From assembly GCA_963719425.1 (NCBI GenBank), contig OY970382.1:455100-519099 (forward strand): 64,000 nucleotides of DNA, in the 5' to 3' direction. Below are positions 2,413 through 59,977 of this stretch, piece by piece. The translations under genes were made by a program, and so were the position numbers. Each line of letters opens with the position of its first letter. Position 1 is the first letter of the stretch. The notes under the pieces were generated by a model, which was not told the origin of the DNA, did not search any database, and was given only the letters and a program-made list of their open reading frames with translations. This DNA comes from an uncultured bacterium (lineage in GTDB: Bacteria; Patescibacteriota; Minisyncoccia; UBA6257; 2-01-FULL-56-20).

Positions 2413-2487
2413 TGGCGGGGGCGCCAGGATTCGAACCTGGAAGTCAGGATTTGGAGTCCCGCAGTTTGCCGTTGAGCTTACGCCCCC
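2413..2487 (-). tRNA. tRNA-Trp (anticodon CCA), CCA encoded
   Basis: Reverse complement folds as a cloverleaf: acceptor GGGGGCG/CGCCCCC, anticodon stem CGGGA/TCCTG with loop CTCCAAA, T-arm CCAGG-TTCGAAT-CCTGG; one mismatch in the D-stem. Confidence 0.75.
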
Positions 2488-4311: not shown

Positions 4312-4786
4312 GTCTCAACTTTACCAAAAAGACATTAAAAAATTGTTAAATATTGATTGGGAGTATACTGATGGTATGGAACTCCAAGTCGGCGTCAAGG
4401 CTCTTCTTCAAAATAAGAGCGGCAAGTACCTCCTCGTACGCCGCTCATCCGAAAAATATCCGGAGGTTGGCGCACAGTGGGACATCGTCGGCGGGAGAAT
4501 CAATCCGGGCACCCCACTCATTGATAACCTGAAAAGGGAAATCAAAGAAGAGGTGAATTTGGATCTGGTTGAGGCGCCGAAACTCATTGCGGCTCAAGAT
4601 ATTTTAAGGGTTCCCGGCAGACACGTCGTCAGGTTGACCTATCTGGGCAAGATTGACGGACAACCAAAACTGAACGATGACCATGTAGAGTGTCAATGGT
4701 TCGCCCTGGAAGAAATCAAAAAACTGGATGCTTTGGATATCTATTTCAAAGCGCTCCTTGATGACGGCAAGTTTGATAACGGTTGA
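4286..4786 (+). CDS. NUDIX-family hydrolase (degenerate Nudix box)
   Basis: 'WDIVGGRINPGTPLIDNLKREIKEEVNL' approximates the Nudix signature GX5EX7REUXEEXGU; small (~160 aa). Confidence 0.55.
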   Translation: MTKTGFLITSQLYQKDIKKLLNIDWEYTDGMELQVGVKALLQNKSGKYLLVRRSSEKYPEVGAQWDIVGGRINPGTPLIDNLKREIKEEVNLDLVEAPKLIAAQDILRVPGRHVVRLTYLGKIDGQPKLNDDHVECQWFALEEIKKLDALDIYFKALLDDGKFDNG

Positions 4787-4857
4787 GCCGGAGAGAGGAG
4801 TCGAACCTCCAACCTCTGCTTTACAAAAGCATTGCTCTGCCATTGAGCTACTCCGGC
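4786..4857 (-). tRNA. tRNA-Thr (anticodon UGU)
   Basis: rc = GCCGGAGTAGCTCAATGGCAGAGCAATGCTTTTGTAAAGCAGAGGTTGGAGGTTCGACTCCTCTCTCCGGCT; acceptor GCCGGAG/CTCCGGC, anticodon loop TTTGTAA. Confidence 0.75.
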
Positions 4858-28847: not shown

Positions 28848-29405
28848 TTAATTCCGGATTTCCAAAAGGCCGCCACGCGCGCCTGGCACCGCACCGCGGA
28901 GGAATATCAAATTTTTTTCTTTGTCAACGTCCGCCACCACAAGATTCTTGATCGTCACGCGCTCCGTGCCCATGTGGCCCGCCATGCGGCGGCCGGGCAC
29001 CACGCGCTGGAACGCGGTGGAGCCGATGGAACCCGGCGCGCGGAAACGGTTCTTCTGCCCGTGCGTTTTCGGCCCGCCGCTGAAGCCGTGCCGCTTCACG
29101 ACACCCTGGAATCCGCGCCCTTTCGTAAGCCCGCTCACGCGGACTTTTTCGCCAGCCGCGAATGCTTCCACCGTCACCGCATCGCCCACCTTGAACTTTC
29201 CCATCTCAATCGGATGCCATTCGCGGTTCCGAAATTCACGCTTCGCTTTCCCAACCGAAACCTGGACGGCTTCATAGCCATCGTTATCTTTACTGCGTAC
29301 CGTAGTCACCTTGTTTGGCTCCGCGTGGATCACGGTCACGGGAATCACCTTCCCGTCCTTCCAGATTTGCGTCATTTTCAGTTTTTTGCCGAGAATAAAT
29401 GACAT
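28848..29405 (-). CDS. rplC: 50S ribosomal protein L3
   Basis: 'MSFILGKKLKMTQIW...VTKGRGFQGVVKRHGFSGGPKTHGQ'. Confidence 0.85.
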   Translation of the reverse strand: MSFILGKKLKMTQIWKDGKVIPVTVIHAEPNKVTTVRSKDNDGYEAVQVSVGKAKREFRNREWHPIEMGKFKVGDAVTVEAFAAGEKVRVSGLTKGRGFQGVVKRHGFSGGPKTHGQKNRFRAPGSIGSTAFQRVVPGRRMAGHMGTERVTIKNLVVADVDKEKNLIFLRGAVPGARGGLLEIRN

Positions 29406-29588
29406 AAAACAAAAATTCCGGTTCTCACCGGAAGTTCATGCGAATACCCGACCGAACCCTGCCCTCAGGCGGGGTCGGTGCTTAAAGAAAACGAAAGACG
29501 TCTTCCGAAGCGCCAAAGCGCGATAGATATTGGCATAAAACTTCCGAGGAAACCTTAGGGAAAGTATAGCAAAACAGGGCCCGCCGTG

Positions 29589-29975
29589 TCAATTGATCGG
29601 CAAAAGCCGGCGTTTAAAGGCGTCGAATTCCTCACGATCCACCTTTTTATCCAATATTTCTATGATGCGTGCGAACCATCCTTCCATCTCGTTTTTAGTA
29701 GGCAACATCGCGATTTTCTGTTCCAAAGCGTCCATACACCCCTCAACTTTATCCAATATCTTGCCGACAGCAATATAGCCTTCCAGAGTTATTTTGAATT
29801 TCGCCTCTGTTTCCTCAAATAAAATCATCATCTTCCGCTGGTCAGCGTCAATTTTATCCGCTTTCACATGTAACTTACTTATCTCCATCCGCATAAGCGG
29901 CAGCTGGGCATCCAGCCGCGCAACCGTGGCCTCCAAATTTTGTTCATCCATGCTCTCATGGTAGTAAACGAACAA
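29589..29975 (-). CDS. Hypothetical protein (128 aa) inserted between rpsJ/tRNA-Asp and rplC
   Basis: Acidic, helical; no recognisable domain. Sits in the S10 operon where rpsJ and rplC are normally adjacent. Confidence 0.4.
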   Translation of the reverse strand: MFVYYHESMDEQNLEATVARLDAQLPLMRMEISKLHVKADKIDADQRKMMILFEETEAKFKITLEGYIAVGKILDKVEGCMDALEQKIAMLPTKNEMEGWFARIIEILDKKVDREEFDAFKRRLLPIN

Positions 29976-30069
29976 AAATAGTCAAAGGTTCTTTAATAAT
30001 TTTTTAATGCACTGCATCACCAAAAACCGCCCCTTGCGAGGCGGTCTTTGGTTTGGAGCCCGAAGGCAT

Positions 30070-30087
30070 CCGGCAAGCTGTCAACTT
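30070..30087. repeat. 18-nt inverted copy of the tRNA-Asp D-arm/anticodon-arm segment (partner 30169..30186)
   Basis: CCGGCAAGCTGTCAACTT is the reverse complement of AAGTTGACAGCTTGCCGG inside the tRNA. Confidence 0.7.
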
Positions 30088-30137
30088 ATCTCCCATTATA
30101 CTCCGATTTCTAACCTTGTCAAACGCCCGCGTCAATG

Positions 30138-30208
30138 TGGACTGGCGGAGAATCGAACTCCGAACTACAAGTTGACAGCTTGCCGTGATACCCTTTCACC
30201 ACCAGCCC
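30138..30208 (-). tRNA. tRNA-Asp (anticodon GUC) candidate; acceptor has a G3:U70 pair
   Basis: rc = GGGCTGG TG GTGA AAGGGTA TCAC G GCAAG CTGTCAA CTTGT AGTT CGGAG TTCGATT CTCCG CCAGTCC A; all stems pair (G-U at 27:43 and 3:70). Confidence 0.5.
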
Positions 30209-30278
30209 CATTGACCGGTGAATTCTAGCAAGCCGCCGATTAAATCTCTCTAAAAAAACTCTCGCGTGGACGTTTTCG

Positions 30279-30608
30279 TTAGACCATTTTCACTTCCACA
30301 TCCACCCCTGCCGGTAAATTCAAATTCGTGAGCGACTCAATAATCTTCTGGCTCGGATTCAGGATCTCCACCAGACGCTTGTGCACCCGGAGCTCAAACT
30401 GTTCGCGCGAGTCCTTATGCACGAACGTGGAACGGTTCACGGTGTAGTGCCTGATCTCCGTGGGTAGCGGAATCGGACCGTTCACCTTCGCGTCGTTCCG
30501 TTCGGCGGTCTCAATGATCTGGCGCGCCGAATTGTCAATCAGCTTGTGGTCGTAGGACTTGATCCGCAACCGGATTTTTTGCGGCGTTTCCGATTCCTTC
30601 TTTGCCAT
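30279..30608 (-). CDS. rpsJ: 30S ribosomal protein S10
   Basis: '[43 protein letters not shown]'. Confidence 0.9.
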
Positions 30609-30609
30609 A

Positions 30610-31809
30610 TTATTTGACGATCTTCGTAACCGCTCCTGCGCCTACGGTGTGGCCGCCTTCGCGAATGGCGAAGCGCTGCTTGTCCTCAAGCGCAACGGGG
30701 GAAATGAGTTTCACCGAGAGCTTTACGGTGTCGCCCGGCATCACCATCTCCATGCCCGAGGGCAGGGTCACCTCGCCGGTCACGTCGGTCGTTCGGATAT
30801 AGAACTGCGGCTTGTAGCCCGAGAAGAACGGCGAGTGCCTCCCGCCTTCCTCTTTGGAAAGCACGTACACCTCCGCCTCAAATTCCGAATGGGGCGTGAC
30901 GGTTCCCGGCTTCGCAATCACCTGCCCGCGCTCAACGTCCTCTTTCTTCAAGCCGCGGAGCAAGGCGCCGATGTTGTCGCCCGCCATGCCCTCATCCAAA
31001 AGCTTATTGAACATTTCGATGCCGGTGACGACGGTTTTGGTCGTGGGTCGCAAACCGACAATCTCCACCTCTTCATTCACTTTCACTTTTCCGCGCTCCA
31101 CGCGACCGGTGACAACCGTACCGCGGCCTTCAATAGAGAAGATGTCTTCAATCGGCATAAGGAACGGCTTGTCGACGTCGCGGACCGGCGTCGGGATATA
31201 ATCATCTAACGCTTTGATAAGATCAAGGATCGGTTTTGCGTCCGGGTCATCCGGAGATTTCACGTTCAATGCTTTCAACGCCGAACCGCGAATGACCGGC
31301 GCGTTGTCGCCGTCAAAATGATATTTTTTCAGGAGTTCCCGCACCTCGGATTCCACGAGATCAATCAATTCCGGATCATCCACTTGGTCGCACTTGTTCA
31401 AGAACACCACGATCTTCGGCACGCCCACCTGATACGCAAGCAGGATGTGCTCGCGCGTCTGCGGCATCGGCCCGTCCGTTGCGGCGACCACAAGTATCGC
31501 GCCGTCCATCTGGGCGGCACCCGTGATCATGTTTTTGATGTAGTCCGCGTGCCCCGGCGCGTCAATGTGCGCGTAGTGGCGCTTTTCCGTGGAATACTCG
31601 GAGTGGTGCAATGCGATTGTGATACCGCGTGCCTTTTCCTCCGGCGCGTTGTCGATCTGATCAACGCCCTCTTCTTTCTTAGCCAGACCCTTCATAAACA
31701 AAATGTGTGTGATCGCGGCGGTCAAGGTCGTCTTTCCGTGATCCACGTGGCCGATCGTCCCCACGTTCACGTGCGGCTTGGACCGGTCAAATTTTTCTTT
31801 TTCTGCCAT
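30610..31809 (-). CDS. tuf: Elongation factor Tu
   Basis: '[34 protein letters not shown]', '[26 protein letters not shown]', 'NKCD'; internal Met start chosen. Confidence 0.9.
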
Positions 31810-31957
31810 GGATTTTTGTGAAGTTTTGATTAAATTTATTTGTAACGATGCCCTTTCACTTCGCGAAAAAGCAATAGCCAATCGACCTAAAACGCTCCTT
31901 CACGAAGGATGACAAAAACCATTGTACCCCTATGCCCCCCGCGCGTCAAATCCATTC

Positions 31958-45081: not shown

Positions 45082-45155
45082 GGGCCTGTAGCTTAGTGGC
45101 AGAGCAGCCGGTTTGCATCCGGCAGATAGGGGTTCGATTCCCCTCAGGTCCACCA
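45082..45155 (+). tRNA. tRNA-Ala (anticodon UGC) with the G3:U70 identity pair; CCA encoded
   Basis: GGGCCTG TA GCTT AGTGGCA GAGC A GCCGG TTTGCAT CCGGC AGAT AGGGG TTCGATT CCCCT CAGGTCC A CCA. Confidence 0.85.
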
Positions 45156-50830: not shown

Positions 50831-50903
50831 GCGCCCGTAGCTCAACGGATAGAGCGCGTGGCTTCGAACCACGAGGTTTGGGGTTCAAATCCTCACGGGC
50901 GCG
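50831..50903 (+). tRNA. tRNA-Arg (anticodon UCG)
   Basis: GCGCCCG TA GCTC AACGGAT AGAGC G CGTGG CTTCGAA CCACG AGGTT TGGGG TTCAAAT CCTCA CGGGCGC G. Confidence 0.8.
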
Positions 50904-50972
50904 CACTTCGGAGATTAAAAAATCATTAAAGAACTTTTGACATTGCGCGATTTTCGCCTACGCTTATGAGCA

Positions 50973-59755: not shown

Positions 59756-59828
59756 GCCCCTATAGCTCAATTGGCAGAGCAACTCCCTCTTAAGGAGATG
59801 GTTCCAGGTTCAAGTCCTGGTGGGGGCA
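59756..59828 (+). tRNA. tRNA-Lys (anticodon CUU)
   Basis: GCCCCTA TA GCTC AATTGGC AGAGC A ACTCC CTCTTAA GGAGA TGGTT CCAGG TTCAAGT CCTGG TGGGGGC A. Confidence 0.8.
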
Positions 59829-59977
59829 CAAATCAGTGAGGCCCGGTTATGTTATAATAATTGATTATAATAACTGATGGGAATGGGGCCGAAGGTCATT
59901 TTGTAGTATGGTATAATAAATGAAAGGTCGCTGTAAGAATTAAGTTGAATAAAAACTCGTAATTACTAATAAAAATC

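Follow-up and report, generated by a model that had tools for sequence, protein, structure and literature searches.

A tRNA-like gene of predicted alanine identity and a candidate antisense small RNA between rpsJ and rplC in an uncultured Patescibacteriota bacterium

Among the systems described so far, those closest to the locus reported here are the kissing antisense pairs, i.e. RNA I/RNA II of ColE1, CopA/CopT of R1 and hok/sok, in which a short RNA with a strong promoter and a terminator is complementary over its full length to a stem-loop of its partner. Here we analyse a stretch of 64,000 nucleotides (nt) from an uncultured bacterium of the Patescibacteriota (contig OY970382.1, positions 455,100 to 519,099; hereafter the window), in which a tRNA-like gene is followed by a predicted small RNA (sRNA) gene in the gap between the ribosomal protein genes rpsJ and rplC. 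The best explanation of this locus is a self-contained two-gene RNA module that entered the ribosomal-protein cluster at a permissive junction. Like the kissing pairs, the module combines a U-turn-like loop geometry with a specificity that co-evolves fast, and the logic of a stable target and a labile inhibitor could apply to it as well. However, its predicted target is a tRNA-shaped RNA of alanine identity rather than an mRNA or a replication primer, and its inhibitor, instead of being transcribed from the strand opposite its target, would derive from an inverted copy that lies on the target's own strand.

Other known systems share part of this design. In type VIII and other RNA-toxin systems, e.g. 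SdsR-RyeA and CreT-CreA, both partners are RNA and translation is a likely target, as is proposed for the module; CreT acts through sequestration of a rare tRNA (PMC8501985). On the other hand, CreA acts by Cascade-mediated transcriptional repression and SdsR/RyeA is a cis-antisense pair, whereas the module would consist of a putative tRNA-like toxin that is neutralised directly by duplex formation. Mistranslating tRNAs are a further parallel. A G3:U70 acceptor combined with a non-alanine anticodon leads to alanine misincorporation in experiments, as one report states (PMC10543346), and natural bacterial mistranslators such as tRNAProA, with ProRSx, exist according to another (PMC10365949). 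Variants of tRNA-Ala and tRNAProA resemble the module in that G3:U70, or another switched identity, is joined to a foreign anticodon. They are, though, single genes, some with a dedicated synthetase, and none is described with a dedicated antisense RNA; moreover, most module members have loops of 6 or 8 nt, for which ordinary triplet decoding is doubtful. The T-box riboswitch, like the sRNA, reads a specific tRNA by its anticodon and is followed by an intrinsic terminator, but it pairs over 3–4 nt, compared with 17–21 nt and predicted unfolding of the arm in the module, which has no Stem I platform, T-box sequence, antiterminator or conserved downstream gene. Finally, the staphylococcal cell-wall tRNA-Gly has kept its aminoacylation identity while ribosome-related features decayed, as in a second subfamily of the module (subfamily B, see below); in the subfamily of the window (subfamily A), by contrast, the elbow is canonical and no transferase gene is linked. 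We know of no antisense partner of the staphylococcal cell-wall tRNAs. A gene pair formed by a tRNA-like RNA and its antisense sRNA was not found described in the open-access literature, which is weak evidence for its absence. The novelty would thus lie in antisense-RNA control with an unprecedented target, a tRNA-like RNA, and would be categorical if the tRNA proves to be a toxin.

The original prediction, made from the window alone, had noted an 18-nt inverted copy of the D/anticodon-arm segment of the tRNA downstream of the gene. Such a copy is present and goes beyond chance; its length is 17 nt, with base 30070 unpaired. The two arms (30071–30087 and 30169–30185) are 81 nt apart and 100% complementary, correspond to tRNA positions 25–41, i.e. 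the D stem's final base together with the anticodon stem-loop, and would form a duplex of −34.8 kcal/mol. A search of the whole window with up to three mismatches recovered only these two sites; in 100 shuffled sequences the mean was 0.09 matches, and a count of two or more was never reached. Rather than the relic of an old insertion or rearrangement, as had been suggested, the inverted copy is predicted to be the 5' end of a separate sRNA gene on the same strand, because a consensus promoter (P1) precedes it and a hairpin and an intrinsic terminator follow (Table 1). P1 lies between the tRNA gene and the inverted copy, the first base of which would be the transcription start, and the sRNA gene stands 16 nt downstream of the tRNA-like gene. 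The predicted 71-nt sRNA folds into three hairpins (−36.5 kcal/mol, z = −4.9). When the window region and five other members of the family were compared with Rfam at E ≤ 1, the only matches above threshold were to tRNA, and none was to an sRNA family. Sub-threshold matches of the sRNA region to RNAI of ColE1 were seen in two members (L093 941..1047, 28.4 bits; L083 358..431, 23.5 bits; gathering threshold 47); these, together with sub-threshold matches of the RsmY and istR type, are probably due to chance or to a generic multi-hairpin similarity.

Relatives of the locus were retrieved with the L3 protein (80 loci from Patescibacteria, or candidate phyla radiation (CPR), of the Paceibacteria, Parcubacteria or ‘Liptonbacteria’ kind; closest L3 match 96% identical), and a degenerate pattern derived from the T arm and the 3' acceptor strand located 17 further loci in metagenome contigs. 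The module occurs in the genome loci L002, L009 and, truncated, L043, which with the 17 metagenome loci amount to 16 distinct sequences; 14 of these have an intact tRNA-like gene, one, shared by L043 and L097, is truncated, and L090 has a 1-nt deletion in the antisense segment. The sources are Paceibacteria (CPR) genomes and peat or soil metagenomes, with at least five genomic contexts, and the order is the same in all members: own promoter, tRNA-like gene, sRNA promoter, antisense segment, hairpin and terminator. An sRNA promoter of the form TTGAC[AG], 15–19 nt, TA[ACT][ACT]AT is found in all 16 distinct sequences, and in every member the antisense segment begins 5–7 nt after the −10 hexamer, where transcription should start. 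Terminators are likewise kept in all 16, with stems that differ in sequence and covary. In the groups outside the rpsJ context (L043 3551..3589; L093, L095, L096) the sRNA promoter is palindromic, TTGACATCCATA ... TATGGATGTCA, from −35 to about +7, a palindrome that P1 of the window does not have; it could serve as an operator, or as a hairpin in read-through transcripts.

The comparison of these members shows that the body of the tRNA is near-invariant, that the anticodon arm differs in almost every lineage, and that the 5' end of each sRNA matches its own neighbour. Cognate duplexes of 17–21 base pairs (bp) and −27 to −37 kcal/mol are predicted in 14 of 14 members, against an average of −17 kcal/mol for non-cognate combinations. 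An insertion is also matched: L002 carries an extra C in the loop (CUCGUCAA) and an extra G in its sRNA. In a gap-free re-alignment, 13 of the 16 core pairs change on both sides. The core-pair cells are paired in 94.3% of cases, a value inflated by the choice of antisense offsets by best complementarity, compared with 71% after shuffling (0/500) and 23–47% when the partner is slid, the latter contrast being unaffected by that choice. Most differences between arm and antisense segment are G·U pairs (19 in the predicted duplexes), either tRNA-U with sRNA-G or tRNA-G with sRNA-U, and the remaining mismatches are mostly found at the duplex ends; L086 has an internal bulge. Since G·U pairs are legal only between two sense-strand RNAs, they argue against an explanation at the level of DNA. 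As judged from these alignments, it is strongly supported that the complementarity is maintained by compensatory change and serves RNA–RNA pairing; this was one of the options left by the original prediction, and the covariation in relatives bears it out.

The candidate tRNA itself is accepted by tRNA finders. ARAGORN calls it, and its Rfam tRNA score is 61.1 bits (gathering threshold 29), similar to the 48–70 bits of the other five tRNAs of the window; five other module members score 38.6–46.2 bits with RF00005, all above the threshold. The cloverleaf is regular: an acceptor stem of 7 bp and a D stem of 4 bp, with GG in the D loop, are followed by an anticodon stem of 5 bp, 4 nt of variable region and a T arm of canonical form. 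The anticodon loop of the window copy, CUGUCAA, has 7 nt with the anticodon GUC and with U33, A37 and A38. The acceptor begins with G1-C72, G2-C71, G3·U70 and C4-G69 and carries the discriminator A73, all identical to the corresponding positions of the window's own tRNA-Ala(UGC) at 45082..45152; the G3:U70 pair to which the original prediction drew attention is present in the ARAGORN drawing and conserved in relatives. It occurs in 15 of 15 aligned sequences (the alignment includes the genuine tRNA-Ala), while acceptor pairs 5:68 and 6:67 and pairs of the D and T stems covary; A73 occurs in 14 of the 15, the exception being L095. Throughout the acceptor, D and T stems 100% of alignment cells are paired, and eight of 16 pairs are compensatory. 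Upstream of each member of the family, whatever its genomic context, stands the block A(G/T)TTTAAT, ~11 nt, TAnnnT with TG, from which we infer that it is the promoter of the tRNA-like gene. The leader and the trailer form an inverted repeat in the window (30131–30140/30206–30215), and duplexes between them of −5 to −21 kcal/mol are predicted in all members. The five ordinary tRNA genes of the window lie at 2413..2487, 4785..4857, 45082..45155, 50831..50904 and 59756..59829. Among them the 3' CCA is encoded only in those for Trp and Ala; it is absent from those for Thr, Arg and Lys and from the tRNA-like gene, so that a CCA-adding enzyme is required. A transfer-messenger RNA (tmRNA) was considered and rejected, as the anticodon arm is complete and ARAGORN found no tmRNA in the window or in any of the loci; no conserved tag reading frame was seen by eye in the sRNA, whose frame is interrupted by indels that distinguish the window from L002.

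The name tRNA-Asp(GUC), given in the original prediction, holds for the cloverleaf and for the GUC triplet and fails for a conventional aspartate identity. The determinants of bacterial aspartyl-tRNA synthetase are G73, G34-U35-C36 and C38 (PMC9976931); the window copy has GUC in a 7-nt loop but A73 and A38, most of its relatives have loops of 6 or 8 nt, and a sister genome has no such gene at this site. For most members ARAGORN reports ‘tRNA-???’ with anticodons of 2 or 4 nt, i.e. loops of 6 or 8 nt, and assigns no isotype. A canonical-looking loop is present only in the window copy and in L009, whereas the loop has 8 nt in the orthologues of L002, L095 and other loci. A common form, (Y)U-NNNC-A, underlies the loops, NNNC being UGCC, UACC, CGUC or UGAC. 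The 3' register reads GUC, GCC, ACC or GAC; in alignment with the genuine tRNA-Ala, the 5' register gives UGC, the alanine anticodon, in several members. G73 is found only in L095 and in the truncated L043 and L097; the tRNA-like gene of L095 (5377..5448, minus strand) has an 8-nt loop, AUCGUCAC, with GUC, C38 and G73, which is the full E. coli-type aspartate set in addition to G3:U70. We know of no anticodon requirement of alanyl-tRNA synthetase (AlaRS). This enzyme relies on G3:U70 of the acceptor stem, as two reports state (PMC6451123, PMC10543346). Because G3:U70 is invariant while neighbouring pairs covary, and because the window RNA has A73 and A38, selection would appear to maintain alanine acceptance and not aspartate decoding. 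The window gene is accordingly predicted to encode a tRNA-like RNA of alanine identity and not a housekeeping tRNA-Asp that takes part in decoding. In terms of annotation, the calls ‘tRNA-Asp’, ‘tRNA-Ser’ and ‘tRNA-???’ that CPR genomes owe to this family should be left out of the decoding set.

Subfamily B (L026, L034; Table 1) has the reverse order and sequences unrelated to those of subfamily A. Its tRNA-like gene has an acceptor identical or near-identical to that of genuine tRNA-Ala, with G3:U70 and A73, a D loop without GG (G18G19), and a T loop of the GUGCAAAU type with G55. The sRNA is perfectly complementary to the anticodon arm over 12–14 nt, and that of L034 has a second complementary segment of 10 nt to tRNA-like positions 4–13. 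A terminator stands between the sRNA and the tRNA-like gene, for which no clear separate promoter was seen. Subfamily B thus points the same way as subfamily A, i.e. to a putative antisense sRNA directed at the anticodon arm of a neighbouring tRNA-like gene that has G3:U70 and A73.

The genomic settings of the module are diverse. The block stands directly after rpsJ in L002 (85% identity) and L009 (74%), and is 5'-truncated in L043. Elsewhere it lies between a Glycos_transf_4 (MraY-type) gene and probable rpsB-tsf, next to genes for a histidine phosphatase and probable rpsF, or near a HAD hydrolase gene with probable ybeY/yqeY-like open reading frames (ORFs), a deaminase, an HtrA protease or a NUDIX gene; nine neighbour proteins were scanned with Pfam, and the labels rpsB, tsf, rpsF, ybeY and yqeY are a reading of ORF translations. 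Often the gene that follows the sRNA is encoded on the opposite strand; the neighbours are heterogeneous housekeeping genes. No protein partner common to the modules was found among the neighbours at the sampled loci, and translated antisense ORFs spanning the module, which were aligned and searched against 5.8 billion proteins, gave nothing at E ≤ 10. Because no protein partner is shared and each module has promoter-like signals of its own, the module is best taken as an autonomous RNA pair, concerned neither with a leader of the downstream ORF of the window (ORF128) nor with regulation of the S10 operon. Its presence is patchy among close relatives. In L043 (3400..3660), which equals L097, the 5' half of the tRNA-like gene has been lost, whereas the sRNA, its promoter and its terminator have remained intact; the antisense segment, now partnerless, reaches −3.9 kcal/mol. 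An intact tRNA-like gene without its sRNA was not found in the sampled family.

Table 1. Features of the rpsJ-rplC junction of the window, with related loci where indicated.
Feature	Position	Strand	Remarks
Promoter-like block of tRNA-like gene	30246..30222	−	GATTTAAT, 8 nt, extended −10 TGcTAGAAT; hexamer 30227..30222
5' leader GUCAAUG	30215..30209	−	Complementary to 3' trailer; would lengthen acceptor helix in precursor
tRNA-like gene	30208..30138 (71 nt)	−	ARAGORN tRNA-Asp(gtc) 30137..30208; Rfam tRNA 30138..30208
3' trailer CAUUGAC	30137..30131	−	Pairs with leader
sRNA promoter P1	30122..30095	−	TTGACA, 16 nt, TATAAT; 12/12 sigma-70 consensus positions
Predicted sRNA, ~71 nt	30088..30018	−	5' antisense weak hairpin, second hairpin, A-rich spacer, intrinsic terminator; ends predicted
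Antisense segment AAGUUGACAGCUUGCCG	30087..30071	−	17/17 complement of 30169–30185; predicted extreme 5' end of sRNA
Second sRNA hairpin GGAUGCC-UUCG-GGCUCC	30071..30055	−	
Intrinsic terminator	30052..30019, T-run to 30018	−	Hairpin also found by terminator scan
Subfamily B loci	L026 1029..1263; L034 1345..1114	L034: −	Reversed order: consensus promoter, sRNA, terminator, tRNA-like gene
tuf	31881..30610	−	
rpsJ (S10)	30608..30279	−	Stop at 30279
Hypothetical coiled-coil ORF (ORF128)	29951..29589	−	120 amino acids from ATG 29951; 128 if TTG 29975
rplC promoter P2	29592..29563	−	TTGACA, 18 nt, TATACT with TG; overlaps ORF128 stop
rplC (L3)	29405..28848	−	Start at 29405; followed by rplD
Sister junction cargo	L081 6330..10437		hisG, IS481-type transposase, small ORFs including 95%-identical ORF128 remnant

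With somewhat better than even confidence, we favour the reading that the antisense sRNA sequesters or unfolds an alanine-accepting tRNA-like RNA with aberrant decoding, perhaps in the manner of a toxin and its antitoxin. Sequestration of the alanine-identity RNA by the antisense sRNA is the well-supported part of this reading, and the toxin-like role is the leading but unproven one. The sRNA, which has the stronger promoter, would be made in excess over the tRNA-like RNA. Pairing would be nucleated by a kiss between the anticodon loop and the complementary loop of the 5' hairpin of the sRNA, and would then zip to a duplex of 17–21 bp. As the full duplex would use tRNA positions ~25–43 as one strand, it would open the anticodon stem and move position 25 away from position 44, and the L-shape would be lost while the minihelix of acceptor and T arm stayed intact. 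In this manner the alanine-accepting RNA, or a precursor that carries the antisense segment in cis, would be kept off the ribosome. Once synthesis of the sRNA stopped, the tRNA-like RNA, presumably the more stable species, would be freed; charged with alanine and equipped with a non-alanine or expanded loop, it would mistranslate or shift the frame, so that the pair would behave as an RNA-only toxin/antitoxin or as a gated mistranslation device. A toxin/antitoxin relationship would fit because no intact tRNA-like gene stands without its sRNA, the sRNA is kept in L043 and L097, and the module is patchily present. The more specific proposal of an RNA-only addiction or abortive-infection module, in which the toxin would be a stable, alanine-charged tRNA that causes alanine misincorporation across the proteome or frameshifting, the antitoxin a highly transcribed antisense sRNA that unfolds its anticodon arm, and the pairs orthogonal between lineages, is rather unlikely.

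Several points weigh against the favoured reading. The transcription starts, the sRNA ends and the processing of the tRNA-like RNA are predicted, alanylation is deduced from identity rules, and toxicity is pure inference. To these may be added the choice of offsets mentioned above for the paired core cells. The register of the anticodon loop is ambiguous, and one register gives UGC, the alanine anticodon, in several members. By the identity rules, members with GAC and A73 could be substrates of valyl-tRNA synthetase, and dual alanine/aspartate or other charging is possible for L095. The metagenome pattern was anchored on the 3' half of the tRNA and its sample covers members that retain this half, with sRNA-only or very divergent members falling outside. 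There is one module copy per contig and no link to mobile elements was seen: the module pattern had 0 matches in viral contigs, and the 243-nt module was unmatched by blastn in phage and plasmid collections.

If the pairing works as proposed, there would be bacterial sRNAs whose only conserved target is a tRNA-shaped molecule, and tRNAs would join the targets of antisense RNA; there would also be a natural case of a tRNA of alanine identity, its anticodon loop foreign or expanded, that is kept under lock. This would bear on how mistranslation is tolerated or exploited, on the evolution of RNA toxin-antitoxin systems, and on the control of quadruplet and mis-sense decoders in synthetic biology.

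Two other explanations, a maturation switch in cis and a masked alanine donor outside the ribosome, are equally consistent with the observations above. In the former, arm and antisense segment would pair within one transcript and, together with the leader/trailer helix, control processing by RNase P and at the 3' end and hence the mature amount, the internal promoter only supplying additional inhibitor. No terminator stands between the tRNA and the terminator of the sRNA, so a tRNA transcript would run through the antisense segment and end at that terminator; the predicted minimum-energy structure of the 198-nt co-transcript (−99.5 kcal/mol, z = −9.4) contains the long-range helix, the leader/trailer pairing is conserved, and in subfamily B the sRNA lies upstream of a tRNA-like gene with no clear promoter of its own. 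However, if the cis form alone matters, it is difficult to see why all members conserve a consensus promoter that would start transcription precisely at the antisense segment, and in subfamily B the order is reversed and a terminator separates the two parts. The switch is therefore deemed quite unlikely, though it is compatible with antisense sequestration and the two are not mutually exclusive. A dedicated non-ribosomal alanine donor, charged by AlaRS and used by an aminoacyl-tRNA-dependent transferase, e.g. for peptidoglycan cross-bridges or lipid alanylation while the sRNA masks the anticodon arm, would account for an alanine identity that is invariant while the decoding loop degenerates. 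It would also fit the absence of G18G19 and the GUGC T loop of subfamily B, features that resemble those of the staphylococcal cell-wall tRNA-Gly. One module group lies right after the Glycos_transf_4 gene, itself preceded by a D-Ala-D-Ala carboxypeptidase gene (Peptidase_S11), and in the sister genome the window's cluster is downstream of mreC and PBP2. Yet genes of the Fem, MurM or MprF type are not linked to the module at any locus, and its other contexts have nothing to do with the cell wall; a wall component would hardly be expected to be missing from a near-identical sister genome, a non-decoding loop would need no 18-bp mask, and the elbow of subfamily A is fully canonical. We consider such a donor decidedly unlikely.

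The remaining explanations fare worse. Regulation of mRNAs by the sRNA through its 5' seed, with the tRNA-like RNA as sponge or decoy, has a precedent in the E. coli tRNA-precursor spacer 3'ETS-leuZ, which reportedly sponges sRNAs, and it is the sRNA that has the stronger promoter. The seed, however, is hypervariable in close relatives and always tracks the tRNA arm, and a third partner would have to covary too; the window holds no other site with up to three mismatches and the invariant G3:U70 would go unexplained, which makes this a very unlikely account. That the gene is an ordinary housekeeping tRNA-Asp(GUC), with an inverted copy arisen by chance or left by rearrangement or integration, agrees with the good cloverleaf, the 7-nt loop with U33, GUC and A37, and the 61-bit Rfam score, and tRNA genes are common integration sites. 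It is most improbable in the face of covariation over 14 members that includes a matched indel and strand-specific G·U pairs; integration leaves direct and not inverted repeats, the L002 orthologue has an 8-nt loop, the sister genome has no such gene at the site, and A73/A38 differ from the aspartate identity set. No more credible is a switch in which the inverted repeats that bracket P1 would make it a fimS-like invertible promoter, or in which the sRNA, whose terminator precedes ORF128 on the same strand, would sense the tRNA and control ORF128 in the manner of a T-box leader. A single orientation is seen in 16 of 16 distinct sequences, inversion would destroy the tRNA, no recombinase is linked, the complementary segments of subfamily B do not flank a promoter, and differences of the G·U type favour pairing of RNA. 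As for the leader, the gene after the sRNA differs or is on the opposite strand in other members, RF00230 was not matched at E ≤ 1, and no T-box bulge of the UGGU type was seen by eye in the sRNAs.

The junction at which the module resides is variable in the host clade. On the minus strand of the window the order is tuf, rpsJ, a gap of 873 bp (from the rpsJ stop to the rplC start), rplC and rplD, which agrees with the ~870 bp originally given. The accompanying statement that the genes for S10 and L3 are almost universally adjacent does not apply to this clade, where the two genes are as a rule apart: across 49 related loci the median gap is 772 bp (range 79–3632 bp), and other loci have no rpsJ within 4 kb of rplC. 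The junction is a cargo hotspot in the Paceibacteria clade (L001–L080), with gaps from 79 to more than 3600 bp, and in L002/L091 the cargo includes an ABC transporter. The tRNA-like gene is absent from the rpsJ-rplC site in about 45 of 50 related loci. In the comparison with sister genomes that had been proposed along with the original prediction, the sister chromosome OY970175.1 (L001/L081), with an S10 protein identical to that of the window, has no tRNA at the junction; the related loci L002 and L009 carry the tRNA-like block after rpsJ.

The ORF downstream of the sRNA had been described as a 128-residue acidic protein. An ORF of this length, with a TTG start, is indeed listed at 29975..29589, but its start is most likely the ATG at 29951, because an identical protein of 120 amino acids (P0001) exists in a public collection, and the product is only mildly acidic (isoelectric point 5.1; 24 D+E, 20 K+R). 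Five homologues were found among 5.8 billion proteins, and Pfam gave sub-threshold matches of the coiled-coil type only. ORF128 is absent from the other module loci and is present, as the 95%-identical remnant, in L001/L081, where there is no module. The ORF had originally been grouped with the tRNA in one insert; the two are unlinked, since module loci lack the ORF and the sister with the ORF lacks the tRNA, and ORF128 is, by its distribution, predicted to be unrelated cargo of the variable junction and not a part of the module.

Beyond ORF128, the leader of rplC has features of its own. About 150 nt within 29406..29592 (minus strand) contain blocks that are conserved in at least 14 related loci. 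These comprise a hairpin of the form GGAAGACG-N4-CGUUUUC, a hairpin in the middle that seems to covary, and a hairpin resembling a terminator whose end lies ~10 nt before the ATG. The leader had no match in Rfam. It looks like an undescribed ribosomal-protein attenuator, which may serve an rplC-rplD operon that has become detached from rpsJ. P2 and this leader are a neighbouring feature outside the RNA module.

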